Assembly: GCA_963796955.1 (NCBI GenBank)
Contig: CAWCNJ010000006.1
Span: 102,691 to 166,690, forward strand
DNA length: 64,000 nt
Reading direction: 5' to 3'
Source of the DNA: Endomicrobiales bacterium
Lineage (GTDB): Bacteria > Elusimicrobiota > Endomicrobiia > Endomicrobiales > JALOBY01
The stretch's first letter is position 1; each line of letters starts with the position of its first letter. Below are positions 1,703-51,743 of the stretch, one piece after another. The translations under genes and the position numbers were made by a program. Under the pieces are notes generated by a model. It made no database searches. It was not told the origin of the DNA and worked only from the letters and a program-made list of their open reading frames with translations.

Positions 1703-1768
1703 ATGGCAGCCAAGAAAAAAGTAGCCAAGAAAGCCGTAAAGAAAGTAGCAAAAAAGAAAAAGAAATAA
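1703..1768 (+). CDS. candidate 21-aa lysine-rich micro-ORF (MAAKKKVAKKAVKKVAKKKKK)
   Basis: ATG 1703 is preceded by AAGGGGTGA (1687-1695); the stop TAA is at 1766-1768. The product is a highly basic AKK-type repeat. It is too short for compositional or homology support. Confidence 0.3.
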   Translation: MAAKKKVAKKAVKKVAKKKKK

Positions 1769-1895
1769 CTTTTTCTGTTCCATGGGGGCGTTTCTATAGC
1801 CTGATGCAGCATTATAATTTTTCCGCTGCATGCCGATCGCCGTTAGACTTTTCAGGCGAATAGAAATGCCCCTCTAGTCATTGCCGCGCTAAATA

Positions 1896-1963: not shown

Positions 1964-3769
1964 TTGAAGACCATGCAAAAGAACGAAAAGATCCGTAACA
2001 TCGCCGTTATAGCCCACGTTGACCACGGCAAAACCACCCTGGTGGATTTTATGCTTCGCCAGAGCGGTACATTTCGCGAAAATCAGGATGTTAACGACCG
2101 CGTAATGGACAATATGGATCTGGAAAAAGAGCGAGGTATCACTATTGCCGCGAAGAACTGCGCGATCTGGCATAAGGGCGTTCGCATAAATATCCTTGAT
2201 ACACCGGGCCATGCCGATTTCGGCGGAGAAGTTGAACGCAGCCTTAAAATGGTTGATGGTGTTATCCTGCTTGTTGATTCTTCCGAGGGCCCGTTGCCTC
2301 AGACGCGTTTTGTGCTGCGCAAGGCGCTGGAAGGCGGCTTGAAAGTTATAGTTGTCGTCAATAAAATAGACCGCAAAGATGCCCGCCCCAAAGAAGTGCT
2401 GGATGAAGTTTATTCTTTGTTCATGGACCTGGACGCCAAAGACGATCAGATAGAATTCCCGATCCTTTACGCTATAGGAAGGGAAGGCATCGCGCAGAAG
2501 ACTTTGGAAGAAAAAGGCGTTAACCTGCAGCCGTTGTTCGATTGTATCGTCGATGAAATTCCTGCCCCGACTTTTGACCCTGCCGAGCCCTTTCAGATGC
2601 TGGTTTGCGACCTGGATTATTCGGATTATGTTGGCCGTCTTGCGATCGGACGCGTATTTAACGGCTCCATTAAAATGGGCCAGGACCTGGTTTGCGTCGG
2701 CGAAGACAACCAGGTGGTGCCCTTGCGCGTAACAAAATTACAGGCTTACGACGGTGTAAGTATCCGGGAAGTAGAATCTGTCTCCGCCGGCGACATCACC
2801 ATTATTGCCGGGATAGAAAATGTGCGCATAGGCGATACCGTTTGTACAAAAGAATCTCCAAAGCCGCTTAAGCGCATAAAAGTTGATGAACCGACATTGT
2901 CTATGATATTCACGATAAATTCTTCGCCGCTATCGGGCAAAGAAGGCAAATTTGTTCAGTCCAAAAAGATCGGCGAACGCCTGCAACGCGAAACCTTGCA
3001 GAACGTAGCCATTGTTGTTGAGCCTATGGCTGACTCTGATAAGTTCATGGTCAAGGGCAGGGGCGAATTCCAGATGGAAATTCTGCTGGAGACCATGCGC
3101 CGGGAAGGTTTTGAACTGAGCGTAGGCCGCCCGAAAGTGATTTTCAAACAGATAAACGGCGCCAACTGCGAACCTATTGAACATCTGTTCGTTGACTGCG
3201 ATGAAACTTTCATAGGTGTAATAACCGAGAAGCTTTCTCGTCGGAAAGGCCGCATGACGAACCTTATAAACCACGGCACCGGCCGCGTACGCATGGAGTT
3301 TTCCATACCCAGCCGTGGCTTGATCGGTTATCGCAGCGAGTTTCTCACCGATACACGCGGCACCGGCATAATGAATTCATATTTAAGCGGCTATGAAGAA
3401 TTCCGCGGCGAATTCATTACCCGCCAGAACGGCTCGCTGGTCTCAGACCGCGCGGGTAATGGCGTCGCCTATGCGATATTCAACTTGGAGCCCAGAGGCA
3501 TAATGTTCGTGGTGCCCGGTGACCCTGTTTATGAAGGCATGATAGTGGGCGAGCACAACCGCGAGAACAACCTGAACGTTAACCCCACAAAAGAAAAGAA
3601 ACTCACCAACATGCGAGCGGCGGGAAGCGATGATAATGTGCTGCTTACCCCGGTACAGCCGATGTCCCTTGAACGCGCTATAATGTTCATAAAAGATGAC
3701 GAGATGGTAGAGATCACTCCCAAATCCATCCGCCTGCGCAAAATGAAGCTTTCGATACATGATCGGTAA
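1964..3769 (+). CDS. typA: translational GTPase TypA/BipA
   Basis: 601 aa. G1 is [10 protein letters not shown]3 is [15 protein letters not shown]4 is VVNKIDR. It has an EF-G-like domain order and a BipA-type C-terminus ([13 protein letters not shown]...). TTG 1964 lies 6 nt after AGGAG; an in-frame ATG at 1973 is an alternative start. Confidence 0.93.
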
Positions 3770-3770
3770 G
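3734..3770 (+). repeat. direct repeat, left copy (the functional typA 3' end)
   Basis: CTGCGCAAAATGAAGCTTTCgATACAtGAtCGGTAaG matches 4974-5010 at 33 of 37 nt. All four mismatches are at third codon positions or in the stop codon. Confidence 0.85.
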
Positions 3771-3797
3771 GGAAATAACATTGTATGTAATATGGAG

Positions 3798-3826
3798 TTG
3801 ACAACATCCAAATATACATGTAAAAT
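3798..3826 (+). promoter_or_regulatory. near-consensus promoter of ATPase gene 1, geometry implies a leaderless mRNA
   Basis: TTGACA (3798-3803), a 17-nt spacer, then TAAAAT (3821-3826). The A of ATG 3833 is the 7th nt after the -10 hexamer. There is no usable SD. Confidence 0.55.
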
Positions 3827-3832
3827 GGAAGT

Positions 3833-4972
3833 ATGTATTCCAGAATAATTAAACCACCGACGGATAAAAGCTTCTTTTTGTTCGGGCCGAGAGGCACGGG
3901 TAAGACAACGTGGGTAAAGTCTTGCTTCCCTGATGCGTTGTACATTGACCTTCTTGAGGCCGAAATGTATAACGATCTTCTGGCAAACCCGCAACGGCTT
4001 GAAAACTTTATTCCCAAAGAGTCTAAGAATTGGGTGATAATTGATGAAATACAGCGCGTGCCGGAATTGCTAAATGAAGTACACCGGCTGATCGAAAAAT
4101 ACAAGTACAAATTTATACTAACCGGATCGAGCGCACGCAAACTGAGAAAAAAAGGAAATAATCTGTTGGGAGGGCGCGCTCTCTCGTACTCAATGTATCC
4201 ATTGGCTGCCGTCGAACTTGGAAAAGATTTTGTTTTGGCAAGCTCGCTGAAATATGGGTTCTTACCAAGCGTCTATCTTGAAAAAGAACCGAAGGCGTAT
4301 CTTGAAAGTTATGTGAAGACGTATTTGGATGAGGAAATACGCCACGAAGGGTTGACTAGAAATTTAGGCGCATTCGCAAGATTTTTAGAAGCCGCCAGCT
4401 TTTCACAGGGATCAATATTAAGCGTATCCGCTATCGCTCGGGAGTGTGCGGTAGAAAGAAAAGTTGTTGAAAACTATTTTTCCATCCTTGAAGACCTTCT
4501 TATCGCCTACAAATTGCCTGTTTTTACCAAAAAAGCCAAAAGGCGTATGGTTTCTCATCCAAAATTCTATTTTTTCGACGTAGGTGTATACAGGACACTA
4601 CGGCCCATGGGACCATTAGACAGGCCGGAAGAAGTTGAAGGCATTGCACTTGAGACAGTACTGTACCAGCAATTGATCGCGGTTAACGAATCTCTGCGAT
4701 TGGGCTATTCAATTTACTACTGGCGGACGGCCAACAACATGGAAGTCGATTTTGTTTTGTATGGCGAAAAGGGAATAATGGCGTTTGAGATCAAAAGAAC
4801 CGGTAAAGTTTCGGGCTCAATGCTTTCAGGTTTAAAAGCATTTTTGAAAGACTATCCGATGGCAAAAGCATATTTTGTATATGGCGGAGATAGGTACATG
4901 AGGGATGGCAATATAGAAATAGTGCCGGTTAACGATATGATAAAAAAGCTGCCATCTGTCCTGCAGCAATAA
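3833..4972 (+). CDS. AAA ATPase of the COG1373 / AAA_14 + DUF4143 type with a C-terminal PD-(D/E)xK-like motif
   Basis: 379 aa. Walker A is GPRGTGKTT and Walker B is VIIDEIQ. Helical DUF4143-like middle region. The C-terminus carries EVDFVLYGEKGIMAFEIK (D..E.K nuclease-like motif). Confidence 0.8.
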   Translation: MYSRIIKPPTDKSFFLFGPRGTGKTTWVKSCFPDALYIDLLEAEMYNDLLANPQRLENFIPKESKNWVIIDEIQRVPELLNEVHRLIEKYKYKFILTGSSARKLRKKGNNLLGGRALSYSMYPLAAVELGKDFVLASSLKYGFLPSVYLEKEPKAYLESYVKTYLDEEIRHEGLTRNLGAFARFLEAASFSQGSILSVSAIARECAVERKVVENYFSILEDLLIAYKLPVFTKKAKRRMVSHPKFYFFDVGVYRTLRPMGPLDRPEEVEGIALETVLYQQLIAVNESLRLGYSIYYWRTANNMEVDFVLYGEKGIMAFEIKRTGKVSGSMLSGLKAFLKDYPMAKAYFVYGGDRYMRDGNIEIVPVNDMIKKLPSVLQQ

Positions 4973-4973
4973 G

Positions 4974-5010
4974 CTGCGCAAAATGAAGCTTTCCATACAC
5001 GACCGGTAGG
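4974..5010 (+). repeat. direct repeat, right copy (orphan typA 3' end, still encodes [11 protein letters not shown])
   Basis: CTGCGCAAAATGAAGCTTTCcATACAcGAcCGGTAgG begins 2 nt after the ATPase stop. It translates to the same 11 aa plus stop as the typA terminus (tcg/tcc, cat/cac, gat/gac, taa/tag). Confidence 0.85.
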
Positions 5011-5040
5011 CTTGAAAGGATTTTCCAGAATAAAAACAAA

Positions 5041-5076
5041 AAAACACACACTTGGAATAATTGGTGTGTGTTTTTT
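5041..5076 (+). terminator. rho-independent terminator (ACACAC hairpin), copy 1
   Basis: CACACAC (5045-5051) pairs with GTGTGTG (5064-5070). The stem is extended by A/T pairs, the loop is 12 nt (TTGGAATAATTG), and TTTTTT follows (5071-5076). It is homologous to 41893-41930. Confidence 0.7.
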
Positions 5077-5088
5077 GTTGCTTTTTTA

Positions 5089-5117
5089 TTGAAAATTCAG
5101 TAAGATTTTGTGTTGCC
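5089..5117 (+). promoter_or_regulatory. conserved upstream box, copy 1 (candidate regulator-binding site)
   Basis: TTGAAAATTCAGTAAGATTTTGTGTTGCC versus TTGAAAATTCAGTAATATTTGTTGTTACC at 41942-41970. The first 15 nt are identical. The box starts 61-62 nt upstream of the -35 hexamer in both copies. Confidence 0.5.
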
Positions 5118-5149
5118 AGCCTGAAAATACTGCAAAACGCATAAAAGAA

Positions 5150-5177
5150 TTGATATTTATAGTATTTAACATATAAT
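5150..5177 (+). promoter_or_regulatory. candidate promoter of giant gene A
   Basis: TTGATA (5150-5155), a 16-nt spacer, then TATAAT (5172-5177). The same hexamers and spacing occur upstream of gene B (42004-42031). Confidence 0.55.
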
Positions 5178-5189
5178 TTATAGTGACGA

Positions 5190-8100
5190 ATGAGCGTAAC
5201 ATTGCTCCGATTCACGTTTTTTTTATTTTGCATGGGACCTGCAATGCTCGGCCGCTCGATCTCGCGAATCGTACCATTCAAAAGCGCCATGGCCGCGATT
5301 ATTTTTGCGGTTATCGCGCTGTTGTTTTTTTCAATAGTTTCCAACGCGGCCCCAAACGCTCCCAGTAACCTGACGCAGTGCAGTTCCACCGGCCTTAGCC
5401 TTTCGTCGTTTACCTGGACCAATTCCACGCTTATCACCTCATCCTTCACGCTGACAACTGCGAGCGTTCACTATCGTATTCAGGTATCAACGGTCACTGA
5501 TGCAAACGGGGCGGCTGTTTGGAATAAAGGCTTATTCGTGGATGCTACCTCGGCGGCGTTGCTGCCTGCGGGCACTACCTGGTACGCCTGGACACCGGCC
5601 ATTCCAGCTTTCTATTGGTGGCGTGTCTCCTGTTTCGACGGTTCGAATGTGTATTCCTCAACAACTTCGGTTTTGCAAAGCGGTGGCCCGGCGGTGGTTG
5701 CCTGGAATACGCCCTTCGACCCGAAGTACCGGGAACCCATGCCGGGTGACGGTATCGGCGGCGGCGGCTCCAGTCTTGCCTGGGGCGACTTCGACGGCGA
5801 CGGGTATCAGGATCTTGCCATACTTGGCAACAGCAATAGCAGCGGTGACATAACCAAAGTGTTTCCCGGCAAGAGCGACGGTACATTCAACGCGGCGGTA
5901 ACCTTGCCTTCGGGGCAAACGTTCAGCTCTGGCGGTGTGGCCTGGGGAGATTTTAACAACGACGGTTTGCTTGACCTGGCCATTGCCGGCAAGAATAGTA
6001 CTACGGGTAATGGCTCAGTGCGCGTGTACCGAAATACCGGAGGCGCCTTCAGCGCCACATTTGTGTCGCCGGAAACCGTGGGATACAGCTTCTCCAATCT
6101 GGCCTGGGGCGACTATGACAATGACGGCTGCCTCAACCTGGTCGTAGCGGGGTGGACCGATAGCTATGCAATCGTGTCGCGGGTATATCACAATAATGGC
6201 AATGCCGGGTTCACCGTCGCCTACAATAATAACTTTGGAGTCGCCTCTACTGATGTCGGTTCTTGTGCCCCCTCGCTTCAGTGGCTGGATGTTGAAAATG
6301 ATGGCGATCTGGATCTCGCGATGGCCGGCAACGCGGGCGGCACCTACAGTATGTCAATATACCGCAACCAGAACAGTACCTTTGCGTTCGGCTCGGCCCC
6401 GGTCTTCGAATACGACCCTGTCTCCGCCGCCGCCTGGGGCGATTTTAACAACGACGGTTTTATGGATTTCGCGGGCGTTGACTCTAATTCCCGGGTAGCT
6501 GTTTTCCTCAACACCGGTAATTTCACCTTCAATACCGTGTCTCCCATTGTACTGACATCCACTATCAACAATTTCACGAACGTCGCCGCGGGTGACGTTG
6601 ATAATGACGGCCTCTCGGACGTATTTGTCGCCGGCAGCACCGGCACGGCATTGTATTACAATCGTAATGGAAGTTTTGTAAATCAACCCACCTTTCCATT
6701 CTGGCCGCTGTATGGTGACGAAAGTATTGCCCTTGCCGATTATAACGCCGATGGCGCCCTGGATGCCGCCTTTGCCGGCGGCGATCTTTTCAGTGCCGAC
6801 TACCTCAGGGTTTTTAACGGCAAGCAGGCGAATGCCGCGCCGGTGCCGCCAACTATTTCCACGGTGACATTTAGCTATAGCGCTACCCGAAGCACATTTA
6901 CCGTTGCCTGGGCCCCGGGATATTACGACGTAGGCCATTCTTCCAACTCGGTTTATTACAATGTGGAAGTCGCCACATACCCTACTACGCTGCAATCGGA
7001 TAATAAACGTGTCGTAAATTCAAACAAGTTCGTGGAGTCCTGGGATTTCGGCAGCCCGAACCTTGGCAGTTACATCCGTCCCGCGGTTTCCACCAACTGG
7101 GCCGGTGTTAAAGGTACCCAGATGGTTGGTTATACGATCGCACCTTCAACAAGTAATTATCTGCTGAACGCCACAACATTCTATTTCCGCGTGCAAACCA
7201 TCGATTCAGGCCTAATGCGCAGCGTCTGGTCGTCGGAATATGCCTGCATCGCCAGTTCCTATGTCGTTTTTACTAATCATGCTCCTGACGCACCCGCGAA
7301 CCTCGTCCAACTGGACGGCTCGTTTGTTTCACTCTCGTCTTTCAGCTGGACGAATTCCGGTACGATAATATCATCGTTTACGCTTACCGACCAGGATGCC
7401 GGCACTCAGGTGAAATACCATTTACAGATCACTACCGTCTCAGACTCCGGCCTTGCCACCTGGACCAGTGGTTACTTCCTGAATTATACGTCACCGTTGT
7501 TGAACCAGGGAACCACTACGTATACCTGGCCGGCATTAGCTGCGAATAAATTTTACTGGTGGCAGGTGTGGACGGAAGACGCAGGCGGTTTAGCTTCAAC
7601 ATCAACCTCAACTTCACTGTTAAGCGGCGGCCCGGCGGCGCTGGCGTATAAAACGGTGTATGATCCGAACGCAATGGATGTGCTGCCCGGCTGGGGTGTT
7701 GGTTACACTAAAACGGAACTGGCCTGGGGCGATATGGATAACGACGGCTACGCGGACCTGGCCATTGCGGGCGATGGTGAATTCAGAGTATTCAAAAACA
7801 ACAAAGACGGAACAATGGATCCCAACTCTATAGCGGTCGACCCTGCCTTGGGTGGCCTTAATACTGTTTCCGTTAAATGGGGGGATTTTAACAACGACGG
7901 TAAGCTGGACCTGGTAGAAATGGGTGGTTGGTGGTATGGGACTGGATACAATTTACGTGTGTATTATAACAACGGCGCGGGCGGCTTTGATCCAAACTAT
8001 GAAGAACCGGTACCCGATTGGGGGCTTGAAGGCGGCTGCGTGGCGCCGGGAGATTATGACAATGATGGAAATCTTGATATCGCTGTTATGGGATACGACG

Positions 8101-40474: not shown

Positions 40475-40503
40475 TTGACTATGTTAACATTAGTGTGTAT
40501 AAT
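40475..40503 (+). promoter_or_regulatory. near-consensus promoter of ATPase gene 2, geometry implies a leaderless mRNA
   Basis: TTGACT (40475-40480), a 17-nt spacer, then TATAAT (40498-40503). The A of ATG 40510 is the 7th nt after the -10 hexamer, the same geometry as at 3798-3833. Confidence 0.55.
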
Positions 40504-40509
40504 TGTGGT

Positions 40510-41832
40510 ATGGAAAGACACATAGATAGGCTTCTGTCTGAATGGAAAAATGACGATCATAGAAAAGTTTTGCTTTTGCGCGGCGCCAGGCAAGTTGGTA
40601 AAACGTATTCTGTAAGGGCGTTAGGGAAAACTTTTCCGCATTACCTTGAAGTAAACTTTGAGGAAGAAAAACCGGTTAAGGAATTTTTTAAGGGTTCCCT
40701 GAACCCGGAGATGCTTTGTCAGAAACTTTCTGCGTATTTTAAGAAACCTGTAATCCAGGGTAAAACACTCCTCTTTTTCGATGAGATCCAATCCTGCCCG
40801 GAAGCCTTAAGTTCGCTGAGATACTTTTATGAAAAGATGCCTCGTCTTCACTTGATAGCAACCGGCTCATTGCTGGAATTTGCTCTTTCGCAAATACCGG
40901 CACAGGGAGTGGGAAGGATCACTTCATTATATCTCTATCCGATGTCATTTGATGAGTTTTTGATCGCTTTGGATGAACGTAAGCTTACTGAAATAAAAAC
41001 CGGATCCAGTTATAAGTCTCCCCTTGATACCGCGTTCCATGAGAAACTGATCGATTATCTAAAGATTTTTTTTATTATCGGTGGAATGCCTGAGGTAGTA
41101 AAAGAATACGTCGAACGAAAAGATCTGTTAGCATGCCAAAAAAAAATAAATGATTTGATCGAAACGTTTAAAGACGATTTTGCAAAATATAAGAACCGGT
41201 CGCCTTCGCAGAGAATAAATGAGGTTTTCAGCTCGATAGTATATCAGTCCGGAAATAAATTTAAGTATTCAAACGTCGATTCCCATTCTTCGCATATCGC
41301 CATTAAAGATGCTTTAGACATGATCGTTATGGCGGGGCTGGCAATTAAAGTATTCCATACTTCCGCGCAGGGCTTGCCTTTGGGCGCGGGTATCGACAGC
41401 AGAAAGTTCAAAGTTATTCTTTTTGATTTTGGACTTTATCAAAAATTGCTCGGGTTAGACATCTCGTCGATAATTGCGGATAATAATTTTACGGCGCTCA
41501 ATAAAGGAAGCCTTGCGGAATTATTTGTCGGGCTTGAAATTATTAAAAATAATCCATCATCTTTACGAAGTGATTTGTATTATTGGCACAGGGAAAAAAG
41601 AGCAAGCAACGCAGAAGTTGATTATGTTATACAGAAAGGGAATGATATTTTACCGGTTGAGGTAAAATCCGGCTATTCGGGACAAATGCAGAGCCTGAGA
41701 TTATTCATGCAGGAGCACAACTCTAAAATGGGCATAAGAGTGTCGTTGGAAAATTTCGCAAAATTTGAGAAAATAGAAGTATATCCCATGTATGCGGTGA
41801 AAAACATTTTGCAAGGGAATAGGGGGGAGTAA
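40510..41832 (+). CDS. AAA ATPase of the COG1373 / AAA_14 + DUF4143 type with a C-terminal PD-(D/E)xK-like motif (second, divergent copy)
   Basis: 440 aa from ATG 40510 (MERHIDRLL...). The ORF-track start at 40495 is a GTG inside the -10 region. Walker A is GARQVGKTY and Walker B is LFFDEIQ. The C-terminus carries AEVDYVIQKGNDILPVEVKSG. The gene is AT-rich: the sample line 40501-40560 has 22/60 G+C by hand count. Confidence 0.8.
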   Translation: MERHIDRLLSEWKNDDHRKVLLLRGARQVGKTYSVRALGKTFPHYLEVNFEEEKPVKEFFKGSLNPEMLCQKLSAYFKKPVIQGKTLLFFDEIQSCPEALSSLRYFYEKMPRLHLIATGSLLEFALSQIPAQGVGRITSLYLYPMSFDEFLIALDERKLTEIKTGSSYKSPLDTAFHEKLIDYLKIFFIIGGMPEVVKEYVERKDLLACQKKINDLIETFKDDFAKYKNRSPSQRINEVFSSIVYQSGNKFKYSNVDSHSSHIAIKDALDMIVMAGLAIKVFHTSAQGLPLGAGIDSRKFKVILFDFGLYQKLLGLDISSIIADNNFTALNKGSLAELFVGLEIIKNNPSSLRSDLYYWHREKRASNAEVDYVIQKGNDILPVEVKSGYSGQMQSLRLFMQEHNSKMGIRVSLENFAKFEKIEVYPMYAVKNILQGNRGE

Positions 41833-41892
41833 TACCCAAGTAACCTTGAGTACTAAAACGATGGCCGCGTTACGTATGATGGTGCATTGTTT

Positions 41893-41930
41893 AAAAACAC
41901 ACACTTAGATTAATTGGTGTGTGTTATTTA
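41893..41930 (+). terminator. rho-independent terminator (ACACAC hairpin), copy 2
   Basis: CACACAC (41898-41904) pairs with GTGTGTG (41917-41923) around a 12-nt loop (TTAGATTAATTG). TTATTTATT follows. It is homologous to 5041-5076. Confidence 0.6.
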
Positions 41931-41941
41931 TTGCTTTATCG

Positions 41942-41970
41942 TTGAAAATTCAGTAATATTTGTTGTTACC
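41942..41970 (+). promoter_or_regulatory. conserved upstream box, copy 2
   Basis: TTGAAAATTCAGTAATATTTGTTGTTACC; see 5089-5117. Confidence 0.5.
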
Positions 41971-42003
41971 TGCCATACAGACGCCCTTAAACGTCTAAAT
42001 GTA

Positions 42004-42031
42004 TTGATATTCATACGATTCATCTTATAAT
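42004..42031 (+). promoter_or_regulatory. candidate promoter of giant gene B
   Basis: TTGATA (42004-42009), a 16-nt spacer, then TATAAT (42026-42031). It is followed by the conserved ATAATTTATAGTGA. Confidence 0.55.
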
Positions 42032-42067
42032 TTATAGTGAAGAAGTTACTGTATACCTTTTTTACTC

Positions 42068-45000
42068 ATGTATCACTATTTTCGCATGGAGAACGTCATG
42101 GTCGTTCGATTGTGTTTGCGAACAGTTAACTCTAAAAGCGCTACACTCGCGATAATTTTCGCGGTTGCTGCGCTATTATTTTTGCCCTCCGTTTCAATGG
42201 CTACCAGCGCGCCGACCAATGTAATGCAGCGTGTCAGCGGTTCTGTTACTCTTTCATCGTTCTCATGGACCAGCTCGTCTCTCATAGTCTCTTCGTTCAC
42301 TCTTCCCGGCAGCAGCTCATACTGCATTCAGGCAACCTCCGCCACCGTTAACGACCAACCGGACTGGACAAAGTTATTGTGGGGCACCAAGCGTTCCAGC
42401 GTACTGAACGCCGGCACGACCTGGTATAACTGGCCCGCCCTTACTTCTCCCGGCATTTACTGGTGGCGCATCTGGGCGGAAAGCGCCGGTGTGGCTTCCT
42501 CGACGATCACCGTGCTCTCCGCAGGCGGCCCGGCGGCATTCGCCTACAAGACTGATGTGGACCCGCGGGGCATCGATGTTTCGTCGGGTCTCGGTGTTGA
42601 TTTTGGGGAAGGCAATGGGGTTTTTGGCGGCCTGGCGCTTGGCGATTATGATAATAACGGCACGCTGGATCTTGCCGTGGCCGGTTACACAGGGTCTCAG
42701 ACCATATGCCGCGTTTATAAAGGCAATGGCGATGGAACATTTAACCAGGCGTTCGTTGAGCCGATCACCGGCTGGGGCTCCGATAACGGATCCATCAATT
42801 GGGGCGACTACAATAACGATGGTTCCCTTGACCTGCTGGTGAACGGTAATGGTTCTGATGGCCCGGTACATTTGTACGTTTTTAAAAACAACGGCGACGG
42901 TACGTTCAATTCAACGCCGATAGAGCCGAAACCTGGCTGGGGACTTCACTATGGAAATGCACAATGGGGAGATTATAACAACGACGGTTATCTGGACATA
43001 GTAACAGAGGGCCAGGATTATCCGGCATACCAAAATCGTTTCTATTTGTTCACGAATCTGGGCAATGGAAGCTTCAACCCTGTACCCATAGATCCCGATC
43101 CCAGTGACGCCTCAGGATATTCCACTGCAGGTTTTTTCGATTACAATAATGATGGTTACCTTGATATCTGCATGACCGGGACAGGAAGTTGGGACAACCG
43201 CATTTACAAGAACAACGGTGACGGTACCTTTACCAATTCAGGCAACGATGTGCCCTGGCCGTACGGCGGCGGGTATACCTACGGCGATTACGATAACGAC
43301 GGCAATGTGGATGTGTGCCTGCCCGACGGCATATGGCAGAACAACGGTAATGGCACGTTTTCCGGGGGCGTTCAGTTTGGTGGAAATGAGGGTACACCGG
43401 CTTTAGCAGACATGAATAATGATGGTAAATTGGATGTAGTCGTTGTCGGAAGTTATCAAGGCAACTTCTTAAAGCTGATCGCTAATAATGGCGGCAGCAA
43501 TTTTACGGCGACAGACCTGAGCCCCGCGACCACCGGGCAGAATTTTTCCTACATAGTTTTGGGAGATCTTGACGGTGACGGGGATGCCGACATAGTTGTA
43601 GCCGGCCAGAAGAATGATGGTTCGAACGCCAGGTTCCTGAGCGTATACAAGAATAAGAATTACGAAATGGGCAACACTAATACCGCGCCGCAGCCGCCCG
43701 CCGGTCTTACCGCCCTGTTTAGCTACAACGTTAACAGCGCCAGTATAACGCTGTGCTGGACGCCCGCCCAGTATGATGTGGGCCATTCCTCGTACTCGAT
43801 CTATTACAACGTGGAAATGGCGACCGCGCCCACAACGCTTACCGGCAGCAATATGAGGGTGTCCGGGGCTAACGGCTACAAAATACCCTGGGATTACCCT
43901 TCTGATCAAGGTAATTATATCCGCCCTGCGGTAAAACAGCGGGCAGGCCTTTCCCAAATTACACAGGGATCAAGTTATCAGGTTCCGTATGGCAATTTGC
44001 AGGCGAACGCCACCTATTACTTCCGCGTACAAACTATTGATGCCGGCTTGATGCGCAGTACCTGGTCTGCGGAAAGATCTATTTGTGCTGCGGCGCCGCT
44101 CCCGCCGAACACACCATCCGGGCTTATGCAATGCCTTGTGGGGGGTGCAACGGTATCGTCATACGGCTGGGTCGGCAAGGCGGGTGACGTTATATTTTCA
44201 TCGTTCACGCTTACGGACCCCAACGGCAGTAGCCCGGTTAAATACCGCATTCAAATAACCTCGGTTACCGCCGCCGGCATTGCCCCGGTCTGGAACCAGG
44301 GCATTGCGGTAGACTACACGTCCGGCTGGCTGCCGCAGGGGGCGACCACCTATTACTGGCCTGGCTTGCCGGTCGGATTGTACTGGTGGCAAGTGTATTG
44401 CATAAACGGAAGCAGCGTTGCATCGTCCGTAGCAACCACTCTTGCCGACGGCAACAACCCGGTGCTATCCTACAAGACGAATTTCGACCCTACCGGAATT
44501 GATCTGGTGCCCGGCCTGGGTGTTAACAGCGGTTTTGTCTCTCTCGGTGATTTCGATAACAACGGCACGCTTGATATGGCGGTTATTGGTTATACCGGCT
44601 CAAGCTACATTAGCAAGGTTTATAAAAACAACGGAGACGGGAGTTTTAACCAGATCGCAGTAGCGCCGAGCAACAGCGTGGGCGTTAATGGTTCCGCCGC
44701 CTGGGGTGATTATAATAACGACGGCGACCTGGACCTTGCGGTAAGTGGTTACGATGGCGGCTCTCCACGCCTGCGCATTTACAAAAATAGCGGTCTCGGA
44801 ACATTTAATTCTTCGCTGGACCTGATATCTGGCGGCGGTTTGGGTAGCAGCGGTGACCAAGGGGTTATTGCCTGGGGCGATTTCAACAATGACGGTTATC
44901 TTGACCTTGCAGGCGCAGGAACGGATGGTAGTGCGGAGCGTTTTTATGTGTTCATGAATAATGGCAATGGAAGTTTTAACACAACCCCTGTGCAGCCTGA

Positions 45001-48000
45001 TCCCGGCTGGGGTGTAGACAACTGGTGGGGCGGGATATGTACCGTTGATTGCAACAACGACGGTAACCTGGATATAGCCGTCGCAGGTACCAGTGACGGC
45101 TTCGCGGGCTATGCCAGAATATACAAAGGCAACGGCAACGGGAAATTTAATTCAGCTTTTACCACACCGGACGCGGGTTACAATGGGGGCGACCAGGGGT
45201 ATGCCTCAATGACGTTTGGGGATTATAACCTTGACGGCAACCTGGACGCAGCGGTAGGCGGTGTTGCGGGTTTCAGGGTGGATAAGGGCAATGGCGATGC
45301 GACCTTTACCGATACAACCCTTCAGCCTGACGGCGCCGGCTGGTTTGGCAGCGCCGACGGCGGTGCGGTAATCGCCTGGGCCGATATCAACAACGATGGT
45401 AAGCCCGATATGGTAATTGGCGGGCTTCAGAATGGCAACGGCGGTAAGTTCAGGCTGGAACTGAACAATGGCAATGGCACGTTCACGTCCAGCGATATCC
45501 AGCCCGGCTGGAACAGTTTCTGCAATGTTGCTCTTGGCGACCTGGACAACGACGGCGATGCGGACGCTGTCGTGTCGAATCAAAATGGTAATGACAGCGG
45601 CCACTACTATTTGAAAGCCTTCTTTAACAAAACCCATGAAATGGGTATCGCTACCAATGCGCCCGTCCCGCCGGGAAGTCTTACCTACCAGTCTTCATAC
45701 GCGATAACCGGTTCCACGGTAATGATAACCTGGCCGGCAGCGCAGTACGACGCAACCGCATCGTCGCGCACGCTTTCTTTCCAGGTGGAAATATCAACGG
45801 CTCAAACGACGCTTGCATCGAACAAAAAATTGATATCAGCGCCCTCGTCAGCCGGTGCATTCATAAATACCTGGGCGTCTGAAGGCGATGATTATGGAAC
45901 GTTTTACCGTCCTGCGGCAAAGGTCTGGGGTACGGATCCCTCGCCGAAATTCGGCATTCAGTTGAATTTAAGCACTGCCACCATCCAGGGCGGAACATCG
46001 TACTATTACCGCATACAAACCATTGATGGCAGTCTTTTGCGCAGTACCTGGTCGGTGGAAGGCACACTGTATATGCCCATGGGCACGGCGCCGGCTGCTA
46101 TCACCAACCTTACCGCATTGAAAGGCAACTCCGGTGGCGAGCTGAAACTAAACTGGACCTCCCCCGGCGCGGACGGAACCGCGAACAACATATACGGTGG
46201 TGTCTTTAAAATACGCTATTCCACCTACACCATCGCATCGGCCGGTTTCTGGACGGATGCGGCATCTAACTGGACGGACCCGTTAAACAAATATCAGATA
46301 ACGATACCTACCAACTCCACGCCGAGCACAACACAGTCAACGACGCTTGTAGGGCTTACCCCAGGCGGGACCTATTACGTCCGTGCCTGGGTGAGGGATG
46401 AGGTAGGCGTAGACAGTACCAGCTGGAACGGTAACTGGTCGGCGTTGTCTAATGCCGCGACCGCGTATGCGATGACGGCGACAACCCCGCAGGTGATAAG
46501 CGACCTGGTAGCCACGAACAATGCGGCTCTGGGCGCCGTTAATCTTGCCTGGACGGCACCCGGCGGTAACGGGCAGACCGGCGACCTGAACGCAGGTTCC
46601 GCCTTCAAAATTAAATATTCGACGGTGAACGTTATCACGACCGATAATTTTACGACCATGCAGTCTACTATGGCTATCCAGAGTATAACTATTTCAACGG
46701 TTGCTACTGCCATGAGCAGGCAGAGCTACAACGTAGGGGGGCTTACCAACGGCAAAAAATACTGGTTCGCGATCGAAACAGAAAATTCCCAGGCCGCCTG
46801 GTCGACATGGTACTCTTCAGCCACAGGGGACGGTCATACCACCTACAGCATACTGGCAAGCACGATCTGTTCGTACACTAACCATGCGCCGACAATATCC
46901 AGCCTGGAACAGCTGAACGGTTCAATGGTTTCAATGACTTCGTTTACCTGGATAAATTCCGGCGCTATCATTTCATCGTTCACTATCATCGATACCGACC
47001 TGGGCCAGCAGGTGCGGTTCAATATCCAGATAACGTCAATAACAACTAACGATGCTGCCGATTGGACCAGTATATTCGCCAGCACGCGCTCAGCTTTGAC
47101 CAGCCAGGGCACGTTGAACTATACCTGGCCGGCGTTGAACCCGAATGTGTACTACTGGTGGCGCGCCTGGGCGGAAGATCAATTTGGCTTAACATCAGCT
47201 ACCTCCACCGCGCTGGTAAGCGACGGTGCAGCGGTAATTGCCTATAAAACACCGTATGATCCGCATTTTATAGAACCTACCCCCGGCTGGGGAGTAGGAT
47301 ATTGGGGCGGCGGTACTGCCTGGGGCGACTTTAACGGTGACGGTAATCAGGACATCGCAGTTACCGGCTGCGGCTTTTGGGGCGGGAACGATTACCTCAG
47401 GGTTTATTTGAACAATGGTGACGGCACATTCAGTTCCTCGTATATAGAGCCGCAGATCGGCGTGGGTTTCCGCAGCGGCGCAGTGGCCTGGGGGGATTTT
47501 GATAACGATGGTGATCTGGATCTGGCGGCAACCGGCTCTGTCGACGGTGATGTTACCGGTATACTGAGAGTATACCGGAACAACGGCAATGGAGCTTCAT
47601 TTAGTACAACCTATACGGATGCGCCCGGTTGGGGCGGGTTCTACAGCTCAGTTGCCTGGGGCGATTATGATAACGACGGCAACCTTGATGTAGCTGTAAC
47701 GGGGACGTTGGATGGGACGGCAGCTAACGGAAGATTCAGGATATACCATAACACCGGCAACGGGACTTTTGACACGAATTACCTGCAACCCACGGCCAAT
47801 TGGGGCGTGACTTACAGTAACACAACTCCACGTATTGGCTGGGCGGATTATGAAAATGACGGAGACCTGGACATTGCTGTCTGCGGCACTGATATCAGCA
47901 GCACGAATGTTTTGCGTGTATACAAAAACAACGGCGACGGAACGTTCGCCTCCTCCCCTGCTCTCCTGGTCAATGATGTTATTGATTTTACCTGGAGCGA

Positions 48001-51000
48001 CTATGATAACGACGGTTATCTAGACATTATAGGCGTAACCGCAACCGGCAGGGACGTGAGGGTTTTTCCCAATAACCGGAACGGCACTTTAAACGCGTCC
48101 CCGGTGATGATTCTTCCCGGTCTCAATGTAGATTTTTATGCGCTTTGTGCAGGGGATTATGATAATGATGGCAATGTAGATGTGGTAGTTACGGGCCATG
48201 ATTTGACCAGCGATAACGGTTGTCTCAGGCAATACCGCAGCCTGGGTAACGGAACCTTTGATCAGAAGCCTACAAACCTTCTTCCCGGATGGGGGCCGCG
48301 TGTTTCAGGTTCCCTTGCGTTGTCGGACTACAATAACGATGGCGCTCTTGATATTGCGGTTACGGGTTGTTACGATACGGGGTGGACACCCACCTGGTTC
48401 CGCATCTTCCAAAATATGGAAGCCCAACTTGGCAACGCCAACACCGCCCCGGTGCCGCCAACTATTTCCACCGCGACGTTTAGCTATAGCGCCACCAGAA
48501 GCACATTTACTGTTGCCTGGGCACCGGGATATTACGACGTAGGCCATTCCTCCAACTCGGTTTATTACAATGTGGAAGTCGCCACATATCCTACCACGCT
48601 GCAATCGGACAATAAACGCATCGTAAATTCAAACAAGTTTGTCCAGACTTGGGATTTCGGCAGCCCCAACCTTGGCAGTTACATTCGCCCCGCGGTTTCC
48701 ACCAGCTGGGCCGGTGTTAAAGGCACCCAGATGGTTGGTTATACGATCGCCCCTTCAACAAACAATTATTTGCTTAACGCCACCACCTTCTATTTCCGTG
48801 TGCAAACCATAGATTCAGGACTTATGCGCAGCACCTGGTCTGCTGAATATTCCTGCCTCGCCTCATCGTTTGTTGCTTCACCATCGGCAGGTATTATGAT
48901 CGTAGCAGGGGCAACGGCCAGCAACCGGAACGACTCTGCGGGGACAGCCCTGACTGCCATGTTTGCCCAAGGCGTTCCGGCGGGAGATCTTCTGGTCGCC
49001 GCTGTAGCATATGAAGGTAACGGTGCAATTACCGTTGCTGACGGTAAAGGTCAGACCTGGCAGCCGGCGGTCACGAGATATGATTCCGGTAATACTACAA
49101 CGTGGGCCATATATTACATCTACAACACGCAGGCGCTGTCTTCTACCGCTGAGAAAACCGTAACACTGACGACGGTGTCTGGAACAACGTACCGGTATAT
49201 GGTGATAACTGAGTTTTCTGGGGCTCAGGCGAGTTCTGACCCGCTTGATAAAACTACTTCCGGCAACCGGTCTTTTTCTACAGGGGCGAACGGAATATTC
49301 ACCGATGCCTCGCCTACCCCGTCGGTCAACGGTGAACTGTTATTTTGCAGTCTTATGCAGGATTCTAACACCCATGTACCGCAAACAGCCGGGACAGATT
49401 TTACGATGGTAACGAACGGTATTGTACCCAATGATAGTATCAGTTCCAACTATCATTTGCATACTGAATACTATGTACAGCCGACCGCTGCCGCTCATCT
49501 GGGAACGTATACCTGTTCAGGTTCAGACGCCGATACGTACGCTATAGCGATGGCTACGTTCAAGCCTGCAACAGCCGGCGATACTACTCCCCCTGCGGCG
49601 ATAACGAACATTTCAGCCGTTACCGGTCTCTCGGGCGGCAGTATAAATCTAACTTGGACTGCGCCCGGGGATGACGGCATTTCCGGCGCCATTTCCGGCG
49701 GCGCTTTCAAGATCCGCTACTCGTCCTATACCCCCACCTCTTGGACGGATGCCGCTTCCAACTGGACTGACTACCTGAATAAATACCAGATCACCTTGTC
49801 CACCAATGCCACACCGGGCGCCTGGCAGGCACGTACTCTTACGGGCTTAACCGAAGGTGTTACCTATTACATCCGCGCCTGGAGCCGCGACGAAGTTGGT
49901 GTAGACAGCACCAGCTGGAACGGCAACTGGTCGACGTTATCGAACGGGGCGACAGCCTGGGCAACGGTTTCGCCCAAGCCGTCCTGCATAACGGACCTTG
50001 TTGCGACAACTAACGTTGCCGCGAACGGCATAACCCTTACCTGGACCGCTCCCGGCGATAACGGTCAAACCGGCAGTCTTACGGCCGGCTCCGTATTCAA
50101 AATAGAGTACTCTACGGTGAACGTTATCAACGGCGCAGATTTTGCATTATTGCCCTCCACCATGGTGATCCAGAGCGTGACGATATCTACAACAACAACT
50201 GCCATGAGCCGGCAGAGCTATACCCTTCCTTCGTTGAGCAATAACACAAAATACTGGTGCGCCATAAAGACCTGCAATGCCGAAGGGGGATGGTCGGTGT
50301 GGCAATCATCCGCAGATGTCGCGGCGTATAACATGCTTGCCGCCACGGTCTGTGTAAACGGGCCGAATAGCCCCCCGAACGCGCCGGCGAACCTGGTGCA
50401 ATACGACGGCTCTTTTGTAAATCTCTCGTCGTTCACCTGGACGAATTCAAGCACGATCATCTCATCGTTCACGCTTACCGACCCTGACGCAGGCCAGCAG
50501 GTGAAATACCGTTTACAGATCACCACTGTTTCCAGTAACGGCCTTGCCATCTGGACGAACGGGTATTTTATAGACTATACCTCGCCGCTTTTGAATCAGG
50601 GCACCACCACTTATTACTGGCCCACGCTGACGGCCGGTAAGTTCTACTGGTGGCGCGTCTGGGCGATAGATGCGGCAAATGCAACATCTTCCACTTCGAC
50701 CGTGCTCAGCTCGGGTGGCCCGGCGGTGGTTGCCTGGAATACGCCCTTCGACCCGAAGTACCGGGAACCCATGCCGGGTGACGGTATCGGCGGCGGCGGC
50801 TCCAGTCTTGCCTGGGGCGACTTCGACGGCGACGGGTATCAGGATCTTGCCATACTTGGCAACAGCAATAGCAGCGGTGACATAACCAAAGTGTTTCCCG
50901 GCAAGAGCGACGGTACATTCAACGCGGCGGTAACCTTGCCTTCGGGGCAAACGTTCAGCTCTGGCGGTGTGGCCTGGGGAGATTTTAACAACGACGGTTT

Positions 51001-51529: not shown

Positions 51530-51743
51530 CTGTTTTCCTCAACACCGGTAATTTCACCTTCAATACCGTGTCTCCCATTGTACTGACATCCACTATCAAC
51601 AATTTCACGAACGTCGCCGCGGGTGACGTTGATAATGACGGCCTCTCGGACGTATTTGTCGCCGGCAGCACCGGCACGGCATTGTATTACAATCGTAATG
51701 GAAGTTTTGTAAATCAACCCACCTTTCCATTCTGGCCGCTGTA
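50714..51743 (+). repeat. 1,030-bp tract near-identical to 5682..6712 in gene A
   Basis: See 5682..6712. This copy carries the 1-nt deletion that breaks gene B. Confidence 0.9.
51295..51296 (+). other. frameshift site 2 (one T missing relative to the gene A copy)
   Basis: Gene A reads ggt tct tgt gcc ccc tcg ctt cag tgg ctg gat (6258-6290). Gene B reads ggt tct gtg ccc cct cgc ttc. Restoring the T gives GSCAPSLQWLDVENDGDLDLAMAG and runs straight into ORF 51352..61947. Confidence 0.9.

Follow-up and report, generated by a model that had tools for sequence, protein, structure and literature searches.

How an ATPase gene (ATPase-1) came to lie between two copies of the typA 3′-end that differ only at a few bases is the question raised by a 64,000-nucleotide stretch of an Endomicrobiales bacterium contig, hereafter the window. 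The functional end of typA (DR1, CTGCGCAAAATGAAGCTTTCGATACATGATCGGTAAG) and the orphan copy behind the ATPase gene (DR2, CTGCGCAAAATGAAGCTTTCCATACACGACCGGTAGG) are identical at 33 of 37 nt, and a recount returned the same four mismatches that the initial annotation had listed (tcg/tcc, cat/cac, gat/gac and taa/tag); each changes the third position of a typA codon, so that both copies encode the same 11 residues, as had been claimed. The local alignment of the two copies scored 55, compared with 28 for the best of 500 shuffles, a degenerate pattern of the repeat was matched at only these two sites in the 64 kb (0 expected), and no similarity was found past either boundary of the repeats. The window typA protein is 90% identical in amino acids to P0122, which ends in RLRKTMLSVHDR followed by the stop; P0122 having the same kind of ending, the short typA C-terminus is native to the clade. 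An alternative start of the typA ORF is possible at the TTG at 1964. Both junctions were 100% identical in a Logan assembly made independently (L001, 2122 bp, run ERR11718638), which speaks against misassembly.

Features of the typA–ATPase-1 locus, and ATPase-2, in the window
Feature	Position	Strand	Evidence or remark
typA/bipA translational GTPase, target gene	1973..3769	+	Pfam GTP_EFTU, EFG_C, BipA_C
DR1, functional typA 3′-end (last 11 codons, stop and 1 nt)	3734..3770	+	
Spacer, 13 nt, from DR1 to the conserved left end; within the inserted DNA	3771..3783	+	blastn homology to family loci starts at 3779-3807
Conserved cassette left end (LE), carries the promoter	3784..3832	+	conserved 5′ of the ATG in 144 family loci
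ATPase-1, AAA_14 + DUF4143, PADLOC PDC-S01, 379 aa	3833..4972	+	Pfam, PADLOC
DR2, orphan typA 3′-end, joined to native downstream sequence	4974..5010	+	
A-tract / ACACAC hairpin / T-tract, terminator-like	5039..5076	.	inverted repeat I8, 13 nt, 100% complementary
Promoter-like site TTGATA-16-TATAAT of the giant gene starting at 5190, inside the repeated module	5150..5177	+	
ATPase-2, PDC-S01, other subfamily	40495..41832	+	28% identical to ATPase-1

The DNA between the 37-nt repeats measures 1203 nt (3771–4973), of which a single base (4973) separates the ATPase-1 stop from the orphan copy, and contains ATPase-1 as its only real gene. Neither a transposase domain nor terminal inverted repeats were found in this insert, and no integrase was found between DR1 and DR2 nor any integrase-sized candidate in the ORF list of the 64-kb window, in agreement with the initial annotation, which had seen no integrase or transposase here. 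Homology to ∼160 family loci is confined to window positions 3779–4953 and breaks off sharply at both limits, so this span, made up of a 49-nt leaderless promoter and the ORF, represents the mobile unit. The LE, found once in the window, carries a −35 element TTGACA (3798–3803), a 17-nt spacer and a −10 element TAAAAT (3821–3826), matches the promoter scan at 11 of 12 positions and has TGGAGTT/AACTCCA half-sites on both sides of the promoter; as the ATG follows the −10 by 6 nt, the mRNA is probably leaderless. Folded as an RNA, the LE was no more stable than its shuffles (z = −0.4). With a GC content of 42.6% versus 50–56% of the host genes, ATPase-1 is compositionally foreign to its host.

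By its domain matches and motifs, ATPase-1 is an AAA+ ATPase fused to a predicted PD-(D/E)xK nuclease domain. Pfam assigned AAA_14 to the N-terminal part (6e-25) and DUF4143 to the C-terminal part (3e-31), and a Walker A (GPRGTGKT), a Walker B (IIDEIQ) and a PD-(D/E)xK-type motif EVDF...E-I-K (E304-V-D306...E319-x-K321) were recognized, the ATPase and nuclease motifs being at least 95% conserved among 158 family sequences. The PADLOC models of PDC-S01 matched both ATPases of the window, with E = 3e-53 for ATPase-1 and 3e-141 for ATPase-2. A Foldseek search with the AF2 model of ATPase-1 (mean pLDDT 66.8) returned AAA+ proteins and, among the top matches, the nucleases Can2 and Cdn1, though at low TM-scores (0.22–0.26), and a PDB sequence search yielded no homologue.

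Homologues of ATPase-1 at 58–86% amino acid identity are distributed in at least 18 phyla, and the closest of them (83–86%) reside in unrelated genomic contexts. Flanking direct repeats with a score of at least 27 were detected at 21 of 131 non-redundant family loci (∼16%), compared with 4 of 1048 mismatched flanks and 5 of 135 neighbouring genes used as controls; ∼84% of the family loci are without such a repeat. The repeats are target-derived and 17–154 nt long, hold identical blocks of 17–74 nt, and their downstream copy usually starts 0–15 nt past the ATPase stop. They mark insertions mostly at the 3′-ends of housekeeping genes and at tRNA-Gln, the targets being typA, QueH, TyrS, SucD, a HemN_C protein, Aminotran_4, LPG_synthase_TM and tRNA-Gln, and no recombinase gene was found inside any family repeat pair. 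About one-sixth of the relatives share the footprint, so that members of the family travel as minimal cassettes with neither integrase nor transposase. The initial annotation had proposed a search for the same cassette with similar flanks elsewhere in the genome or metagenome; among the family loci, a second, independent insertion at a typA 3′-end was found in a CPR bacterium (locus L066), with a 36-nt repeat and an orphan that retains the native terminator; there the cassette is oriented opposite to that of the window, so that both orientations relative to typA occur.

With the conserved 49-nt leaderless promoter and the ORF as its parts, ATPase-1 forms a compact cassette of one gene that moves horizontally. 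It lies at the very 3′-end of typA, inserted directly past the stop codon, and its arrival has duplicated the target: the upstream copy completes typA, while the downstream copy is the displaced orphan beside the native hairpin and promoter. The insertion footprint originally proposed is borne out by the foreign GC content, the sharp homology breaks, the absence of the ATPase from the nearest relative, the unrelated contexts of the closest homologues and the recurrent target duplications; its likeness to integrative elements at gene 3′-ends holds as an analogy, in that the typA end is duplicated and the gene regenerated. The reading of the ACACAC hairpin as the original typA terminator is doubtful, as the hairpin belongs to a repeated module. 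Its arms (5039–5051 and 5064–5076, the former starting 28 nt past the orphan copy; fold energy −21 kcal/mol, z = −3.5) and the promoter that follows make up a ∼160-nt module, a second copy of which lies at 41892–42060 (alignment with 41833–42078), after ATPase-2 and upstream of the second giant-gene operon. ATPase-2 itself is low in GC and has its own promoter, TTGACT-17-TATAAT, whose end lies 6 nt from the ATG. Around this gene no flanking repeat was detected; a candidate pairing the sequences after the stops of the TPR gene and of ATPase-2 scored 17, a value matched by 306 of 500 shuffles, and was rejected.

A comparison with related typA loci had likewise been proposed initially. In the nearest typA relative (L082, 90% amino acid identity) a single typA end is present without the ATPase and is followed by an IS200-like gene, and the typA 3′-ends of L082–L084 are all without an ATPase; the ATPase is thus absent from the nearest relative, but a clean empty site for the window insertion was not found with this one close relative, whose contig ends after the IS200-like gene, so that the right flank is not alignable, and which differs downstream of typA too. 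Exact look-ups of the typA protein for empty-site contigs returned no record, and among the fetched family loci only the shared insertions of a tRNA-Gln lineage appeared. Nor was a circular form of the cassette found, or a donor lineage with typA beside a near-identical ATPase, the closest ATPase being 86% identical; plasmid and phage relatives were found only at <40% identity. Three further clues were tried and discarded. At the four differing sites L082 agrees with the orphan at three, but typA third positions are saturated against it (51% identity), so this outgroup gives no polarity; the variant codons displayed no host preference; and microhomology between the ATPase 3′-end and typA left of DR1 was not significant (p = 0.73), with no general trend over the 21 loci.

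As for how the cassette integrates, we infer recombination without a transposase or integrase, and we hold it moderately probable that the full account combines a mobile cassette, recombination-based integration and a carried gene end that replaces the typA terminus. The cassette would most likely travel with a short gene-end segment from its previous site, in an attP-like manner, and this segment would pair with the homologous gene end of a new host via an identical block of 17–24 nt. It could then be duplicated by a single crossover, or by short-homology repair of a break possibly induced by the putative nuclease of the cassette, whereupon the cassette-borne end would finish the gene and the native end would become the orphan. 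The four synonymous differences in the window would then represent allelic differences between donor and recipient typA, and a new target would first have to be colonised by an illegitimate event, of the kind known as ‘insertion with long target duplication’. The carried gene end is favoured by the differing tails at two loci and by a passenger at a third. At L015 the two QueH ends differ by four synonymous changes and then close with RQ and a stop (AGG CAA TAA) versus RK and a stop (CGC AAA TGA); at L055 the functional and orphan SucD tails diverge after a 17-nt identical block; and at L127, a site without a tRNA, the 3′ half of tRNA-Gln has come along with the cassette, together with terminator and leader. 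The same three loci lend weight to the initial suggestion that the two typA copies had evolved, as coding sequence, in different lineages, which is nevertheless not established.

A plain target duplication, in which 37-nt staggered breaks at the typA stop, made perhaps by a nuclease, captured the cassette and were filled in to give identical copies that diverged later, with synonymous change in the constrained copy and, by chance, nothing but silent-looking change in the orphan, is a possible though rather doubtful alternative to the carried end. It accommodates the variable repeat lengths and the use of either orientation relative to typA, and it has been documented for restriction-modification genes, with 46-bp repeats (44/46) overlapping gene 3′-ends (PMC2853133). 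Several perfect or near-perfect repeats that span the stop and non-coding bases fit it as well (L170, 25/25; L144, 43/43; L116, 27/28; L119, 93% over 154 nt), and repeats running 1–14 nt past the stop, some of them perfect as at L170 and L144, are equally expected from a staggered cut. Orphans with non-synonymous differences or a stop (L066, L099 and L073) fit decay after a simple duplication equally, and identical blocks of 17–20 nt are short for RecA-type recombination. Synonymous drift after duplication would, by our own estimate, make all four of four differences look synonymous with a probability of only ∼0.02–0.05; the tails at L015, with their stops in register, and the differing tails at L055 are hard to reach by decay, and the cassette does take adjoining gene ends along, as the passenger at L127 shows.

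We consider it improbable that an integrase of the tyrosine or serine type, encoded elsewhere, mobilises the cassette in trans, which would make the locus a CIME-like or MITE-like integrative remnant and its repeats attL and attR. Integrases do classically leave such a footprint, in which the 3′-end of a gene or tRNA is duplicated and the gene restored. A 43-nt repeat of the tRNA-Gln lineage extends from the anticodon loop to the 3′-end, an intact integrase adjoins a tRNA-Gln fragment at L176, an integrase remnant is present at L026, and at L127 the passenger has its left edge at the boundary of the repeat. Against these stand at least 12 unrelated targets for one narrow ATPase subfamily, which would need equally many integrase specificities; integrase homologues are absent from inside the repeat pairs and from the ORF list of the window, and occur near the cassette only at L176, L026 and L104 (2–3 of ∼160 loci), and repeats of up to 154 nt with variable left junctions are atypical. 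That there is no insertion footprint, the two copies resembling each other by chance, stemming from a local duplication that has nothing to do with the ATPase, or coming from a two-strain assembly chimera, is very improbable: the exact locus was seen in one population only and the contig is metagenome-assembled, but the repeat score (55) exceeds the shuffle maximum (28), the junctions are identical in the independent assembly, and the same architecture recurs at >20 other loci.

The PDC-S01 family (COG1373, DUF4143), with ∼39,000 instances counted (PMC12988326), is reported to rank fourth in frequency among prokaryotic ‘defence’ families; its ATPase plus PD-(D/E)xK architecture has been described (PMC12988326, PMC3424549), and DUF4143 is listed in the PD-(D/E)XK superfamily (PMC3424549). 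In the literature, PDC-S01 figures as a static candidate for a defence gene that is often transferred horizontally; the PDC-S01 papers found do not mention a cassette of defined limits that has a conserved promoter and duplicates its targets, and searches for DUF4143 and COG1373 returned almost nothing functional. One representative gave no protection against T4, T5 and T7 in E. coli B (bioRxiv 10.1101/2024.09.26.614923), and an anti-phage role of the family is a candidate only. PDC-S01 ranks among the most abundant candidate defence families but is without a demonstrated function, and the finding that a subfamily is mobile as a unit of one gene and promoter with sharp limits, leaving long target duplications at housekeeping gene ends, gives a testable mobility model for single-gene ‘defence’ cassettes and extends Kobayashi's ‘insertion with long target duplication’ past restriction-modification systems. 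The LE motif, the ORF and a flanking repeat together provide a practical signature for recent insertions and empty sites. More speculatively, and in our view unlikely, PDC-S01 genes may be minimal integrase-less integrative elements, each a single gene under a universal leaderless promoter, whose own AAA+/PD-(D/E)xK protein drives break-induced short-homology integration at housekeeping gene 3′-ends with a portable replacement gene end; if so, they would constitute a new minimal class of integrative element, and the ‘defence island’ abundance of the family would partly reflect selfish mobility rather than immunity.

Among the known systems, free-standing homing endonuclease genes (such as the seg/mob genes of phage T4, with their intronless homing) are single nuclease genes located between conserved genes or beside one. 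The cassette resembles them as a single, predicted nuclease gene with its own promoter, which would spread by flanking-homology recombination and is accompanied by silent polymorphisms in the neighbour; unlike it, homing leaves no duplicated gene end, and the cassette protein combines AAA+ with PD-(D/E)xK, belongs to none of the GIY-YIG, HNH and LAGLIDADG enzymes and has no known cleavage site. Two lineages that are very far apart, that of the window and that of L066, have an insertion at the typA 3′-end, and most family members lie elsewhere. With integrative elements and CIMEs at the 3′-ends of tRNA, tmRNA and protein genes, the cassette shares the duplicated, att-like end, the element-borne regeneration of the gene, the orphan downstream and the use of tRNA-Gln from the anticodon loop to the 3′-end, but it is a 1.2-kb, one-gene unit with no tyrosine or serine recombinase encoded in cis, many unrelated targets and a right junction at the ORF stop. 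DNA transposons and insertion sequences differ from it in all three hallmarks, as it has no terminal inverted repeats, no transposase and no fixed repeat length (17–154 nt). The closest known phenomenon is the insertion with long target duplication of restriction-modification gene complexes, reportedly described by Nobusato et al. in 2000. For such insertions Furuta, Abe & Kobayashi (2010) required an insert of <20 kb, direct repeats of >30 bp, no mobility gene and an empty site in a relative, with a single repeat copy and an alignment on either side; the 46-bp repeats cited above are from H. influenzae, and a virus-like cycle using the repeats was proposed (PMC2853133); the window insertion agrees in size, repeat length and lack of a mobility gene. 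Both are nuclease gene units without transposase or integrase, bounded by long, variable, target-derived direct repeats, whereas the cassette is a single ATPase–nuclease gene with a cross-phylum promoter and no methyltransferase, its repeats can be shorter (17–37 nt), and at some of its loci the gene tails differ, suggesting that the cassette brought a replacement end and that the target was not simply duplicated.

The ATPase-1 gene was found to be bracketed by a direct repeat of 37 nt, of which 33 match between the copies. The upstream copy is the terminus of typA (Pfam GTP_EFTU, EFG_C and BipA_C), whose ORF ends at 3769, and the orphan copy, i.e. the one displaced beyond ATPase-1, begins one base past the ATPase-1 stop codon. 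Read in the typA frame, the four differences (tcg/tcc, cat/cac, gat/gac and taa/tag) are all third-position changes, and the two copies therefore encode the same 11-residue peptide. The repeat aligned with a score of 55 versus a maximum of 28 in 500 shuffles, and its pattern occurred nowhere else in the window. The separately assembled Logan contig L001 is identical to the window across both junctions, which argues against a misassembly. The typA-end duplication with only synonymous differences, as claimed in the initial annotation, was thus confirmed.

The 379-aa product of ATPase-1 carries AAA_14 and DUF4143 (Pfam), the latter a member of the PD-(D/E)XK nuclease superfamily without assigned function (PMC3424549). 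The Walker A (GPRGTGKT), Walker B (IDExQ) and E-V-D-F...E-x-K motifs are each at least 95% conserved among 158 family sequences, and the AlphaFold model (mean pLDDT 66.8; 80–93 in the C-terminal domain) gave low-TM-score matches to AAA+ proteins and to the PD-(D/E)xK nucleases Can2/Cdn1. PADLOC assigned both ATPase-1 and the very different ATPase-2 to PDC-S01, a candidate single-gene defence family that is reported to be the fourth commonest ‘defence’ in prokaryotes and is still unvalidated (PMC12988326); one representative did not block T4, T5 or T7 (bioRxiv 10.1101/2024.09.26.614923). The GC contents of ATPase-1 and ATPase-2 are 42.6% and 39.5%, and those of neighbouring genes 50–56%. ATPase-2 (445 aa, 28% identical to ATPase-1) has its own promoter, TTGACT-17-TATAAT, ending 6 nt ahead of the ATG, and has a TPR gene on one side and the second giant-gene operon on the other; no repeat was found to flank it.

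MAGs from at least 18 phylum-level groups encode homologues of ATPase-1 (58–86% amino acid identity). By blastn against about 175 fetched loci, homology to the window was confined to 3779–3807 through 4953. The 49 nt preceding the ATG were conserved in 144 loci, with the consensus TTGACAAyTCCAAAAATAnATGTAAAATGGAgTT and then ATG, and on the right family conservation ceased at the last codons of the ORF; in some loci, such as L099 and L116 (L numbers denote database contigs), the ATPase stop codon falls within the downstream repeat copy. Since conservation spans just promoter and ORF, these two alone make up the mobile unit, namely the cassette. From the positions of the −10 and the ATG, the ATPase-1 transcript is probably leaderless. 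Three TGGAGTT/AACTCCA half-sites lie in the cassette promoter, and in many loci, the window included, a partial extra copy of the promoter 3′ part (TGTAAAATGGAGTT) immediately precedes the −35; L050 and L174 have two tandem promoters each, and L094 a degenerate complete copy after the ATPase stop with its −35 mutated to TTGCTA. These half-sites and extra copies suggest an operator, or recombination at the promoter site. In L085, an ORF for a 161-aa GH1 C-terminal fragment reads into the cassette promoter and stops at the TAA of the TGTAATATGG motif; the GH2 gene that follows has its start overlapped by a diverged repeat of 36 nt.

When the 230 nt upstream of the promoter were compared with the 130 nt after the stop, a threshold score of ≥27 was reached in 21 of 131 non-redundant loci, versus 4 of 1048 mismatched flank pairs and 5 of 135 neighbouring genes. 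The flanking repeats, unrelated from locus to locus, are 17–154 nt long and 72–100% identical. The distance from the ATPase stop to the downstream copy is usually 0–15 nt (range −3 to +69), and that from the upstream copy to the conserved promoter 0–170 nt. In at least 10 cases, and in either orientation, the repeat includes the stop codon of an adjacent gene. The genes targeted encode QueH (L015), a HemN_C radical-SAM protein (L073), SucD (L055), TyrS (L116), a class IV aminotransferase (L047), an LPG_synthase_TM protein (L099), a GH1 protein (L085) and, in one deltaproteobacterial lineage, tRNA-Gln(CTG). L066, which comes from a MAG of Candidatus Jacksonbacteria, has an ATPase with 61% identity to ATPase-1 inserted at the 3′ end of, and convergent with, a typA 48% identical to that of the window; the 36-nt repeat comprises the last ~10.7 typA codons, the stop and one base, and the orphan copy, as in the window, retains the native terminator. 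Two independent insertions have hence hit the typA 3′ end. The insertion initially proposed is well supported and generalizes to a family-wide mobility signature, of which no description was found in the literature. A hotspot of integration in the deltaproteobacterial lineage is tRNA-Gln(CTG), which has hisS and glnS on its two sides: L119 has three tRNA-Gln copies with the cassette between the first and second, L026 part of a tRNA copy along with the remnant of an integrase, and L176 a tRNA fragment adjoined by a PIN toxin gene and a tyrosine integrase gene that is intact.

Coordinates of features in the window and in related contigs
Feature	Sequence	Position	Remark
Tiny lysine-rich ORF	window	1704–1769	MAAKKKVAKKAVKKVAKKKKK, then stop
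Terminator-like hairpin	window	~1640–1670	
Functional repeat copy	window	3734–3770	typA terminus
Half-sites	window	3784–3832	
Cassette promoter	window	3798–3826	−35 TTGACA at 3798, 17-nt spacer, −10 TAAAAT ending 3826
ATPase-1	window	3833–4972	+ strand, ATG at 3833
Orphan repeat copy	window	4974–5010	
ACACAC hairpin	window	5039–5076	
Module	window	5036–5190; 41892–42060	
Very large ORFs	window	5190–38653; 42068–61947	
ATPase-2	window	40495–41832	+ strand
Tandem promoters	L050; L174	2645–2707; 164–226	
Promoter copy	L094	4138–4186	
GH1 fragment ORF	L085	2473–2958	
tRNA-Gln hotspot	L119; L026; L176	2734–7002; 254–2894; 242–1753	
Y1_Tnp gene	L082	2981–3775	
Co-directional array	L088	1–7146	

The nearest typA protein, P0122 (90% amino acid identity; contig L082), ends in ...RLRKTMLSVHDR before the stop, so the short typA C-terminus is native to the clade, and L082 shares the upstream response-regulator gene with the window. 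There, the gene after typA is not the ATPase but one for an IS200-like Y1 transposase; the two closest genomes differ in the mobile genes that occupy the region downstream of typA. The more distant L083 and L084 have a POTRA gene downstream of typA. These relatives (L082–L084) provided typA loci without the ATPase downstream; a clean empty site that aligned on both sides was not obtained. The closest ATPases (83–86% amino acid identity) occur in unrelated contexts, i.e. a glycoside-hydrolase operon, a defence-like island and beside a GIY-YIG gene. The 83%-identical one in L088 stands in a co-directional array with a second DUF4143 ATPase, HEPN/NTase, Macro, ATPase_2 and PDDEXK_1 genes and an IS91 transposase, with repeated intergenic sequences (agattcttcg...actcagaatgaca). 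Upstream of the window typA, a tiny ORF lies 3′ of a terminator-like hairpin. The ACACAC hairpin, initially noted to be where the original typA terminator would be expected, is not simply assignable to typA, because with the following promoter it forms a ~160-nt module of which a second copy precedes the second giant-gene operon, there too directly after a PDC-S01 gene. The module consists of an A-tract, the hairpin, a T-tract and a promoter-like TTGATA-16-TATAAT, and stands upstream of both giant-gene operons, each time within ~65 nt downstream of a PDC-S01 gene. The four very large ORFs (2347, 8817, 3153 and 3531 aa) carry WGDFNNDG/FG-GAP-like repeats and occupy most of the window.

The cassette is the sole content of every repeat pair, which bears out the initial remark on the absence of an integrase or transposase. 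Integrase homologues were found near only 2–3 loci, each of them in or close to the tRNA-Gln hotspot. Together with the absence of terminal inverted repeats and the variable duplication length, this excludes a transposase or a cis-encoded integrase. Mobilization by integrases acting in trans is an unlikely alternative. No junction microhomology was found. We favour a mechanism by which the cassette would bring a gene-end segment from its previous site and this segment would guide integration. At L015, four synonymous changes separate the two QueH ends, which then read RQ-stop (AGG CAA TAA) and RK-stop (CGC AAA TGA), the stops being in register; in L055, a 17-nt identical block is followed by a SucD-like C-terminus in the functional copy and a different continuation in the orphan; and at the L127 site, which has no tRNA, the promoter side of the cassette bears the 3′ half of a tRNA-Gln together with the tRNA terminator and the same leader as in the tRNA-Gln insertions. 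A carried gene end would explain the window pattern directly, its differences being allelic differences in a constrained gene; in the three that change GC, the AT allele is always in the functional copy, matching the AT-richer cassette, which is weak evidence. With these three loci, the two-lineage origin suggested for the copies is plausible and the leading model; the outgroup was too saturated to polarize the four differences.

Insertion with long target duplication in its plain form, known from restriction-modification genes, is a less likely alternative and would accommodate the perfect repeats extending into non-coding DNA (L170, L144 and L116) and the orphans bearing non-synonymous changes or stops (L066, L099 and L073); however, under duplication and drift the probability that all four window differences look synonymous is, by our own estimate, ~0.02–0.05. 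Such insertion may involve double-strand breaks, and among its cases in restriction-modification genes are repeats of 46 bp that overlap the 3′ ends of genes (PMC2853133).
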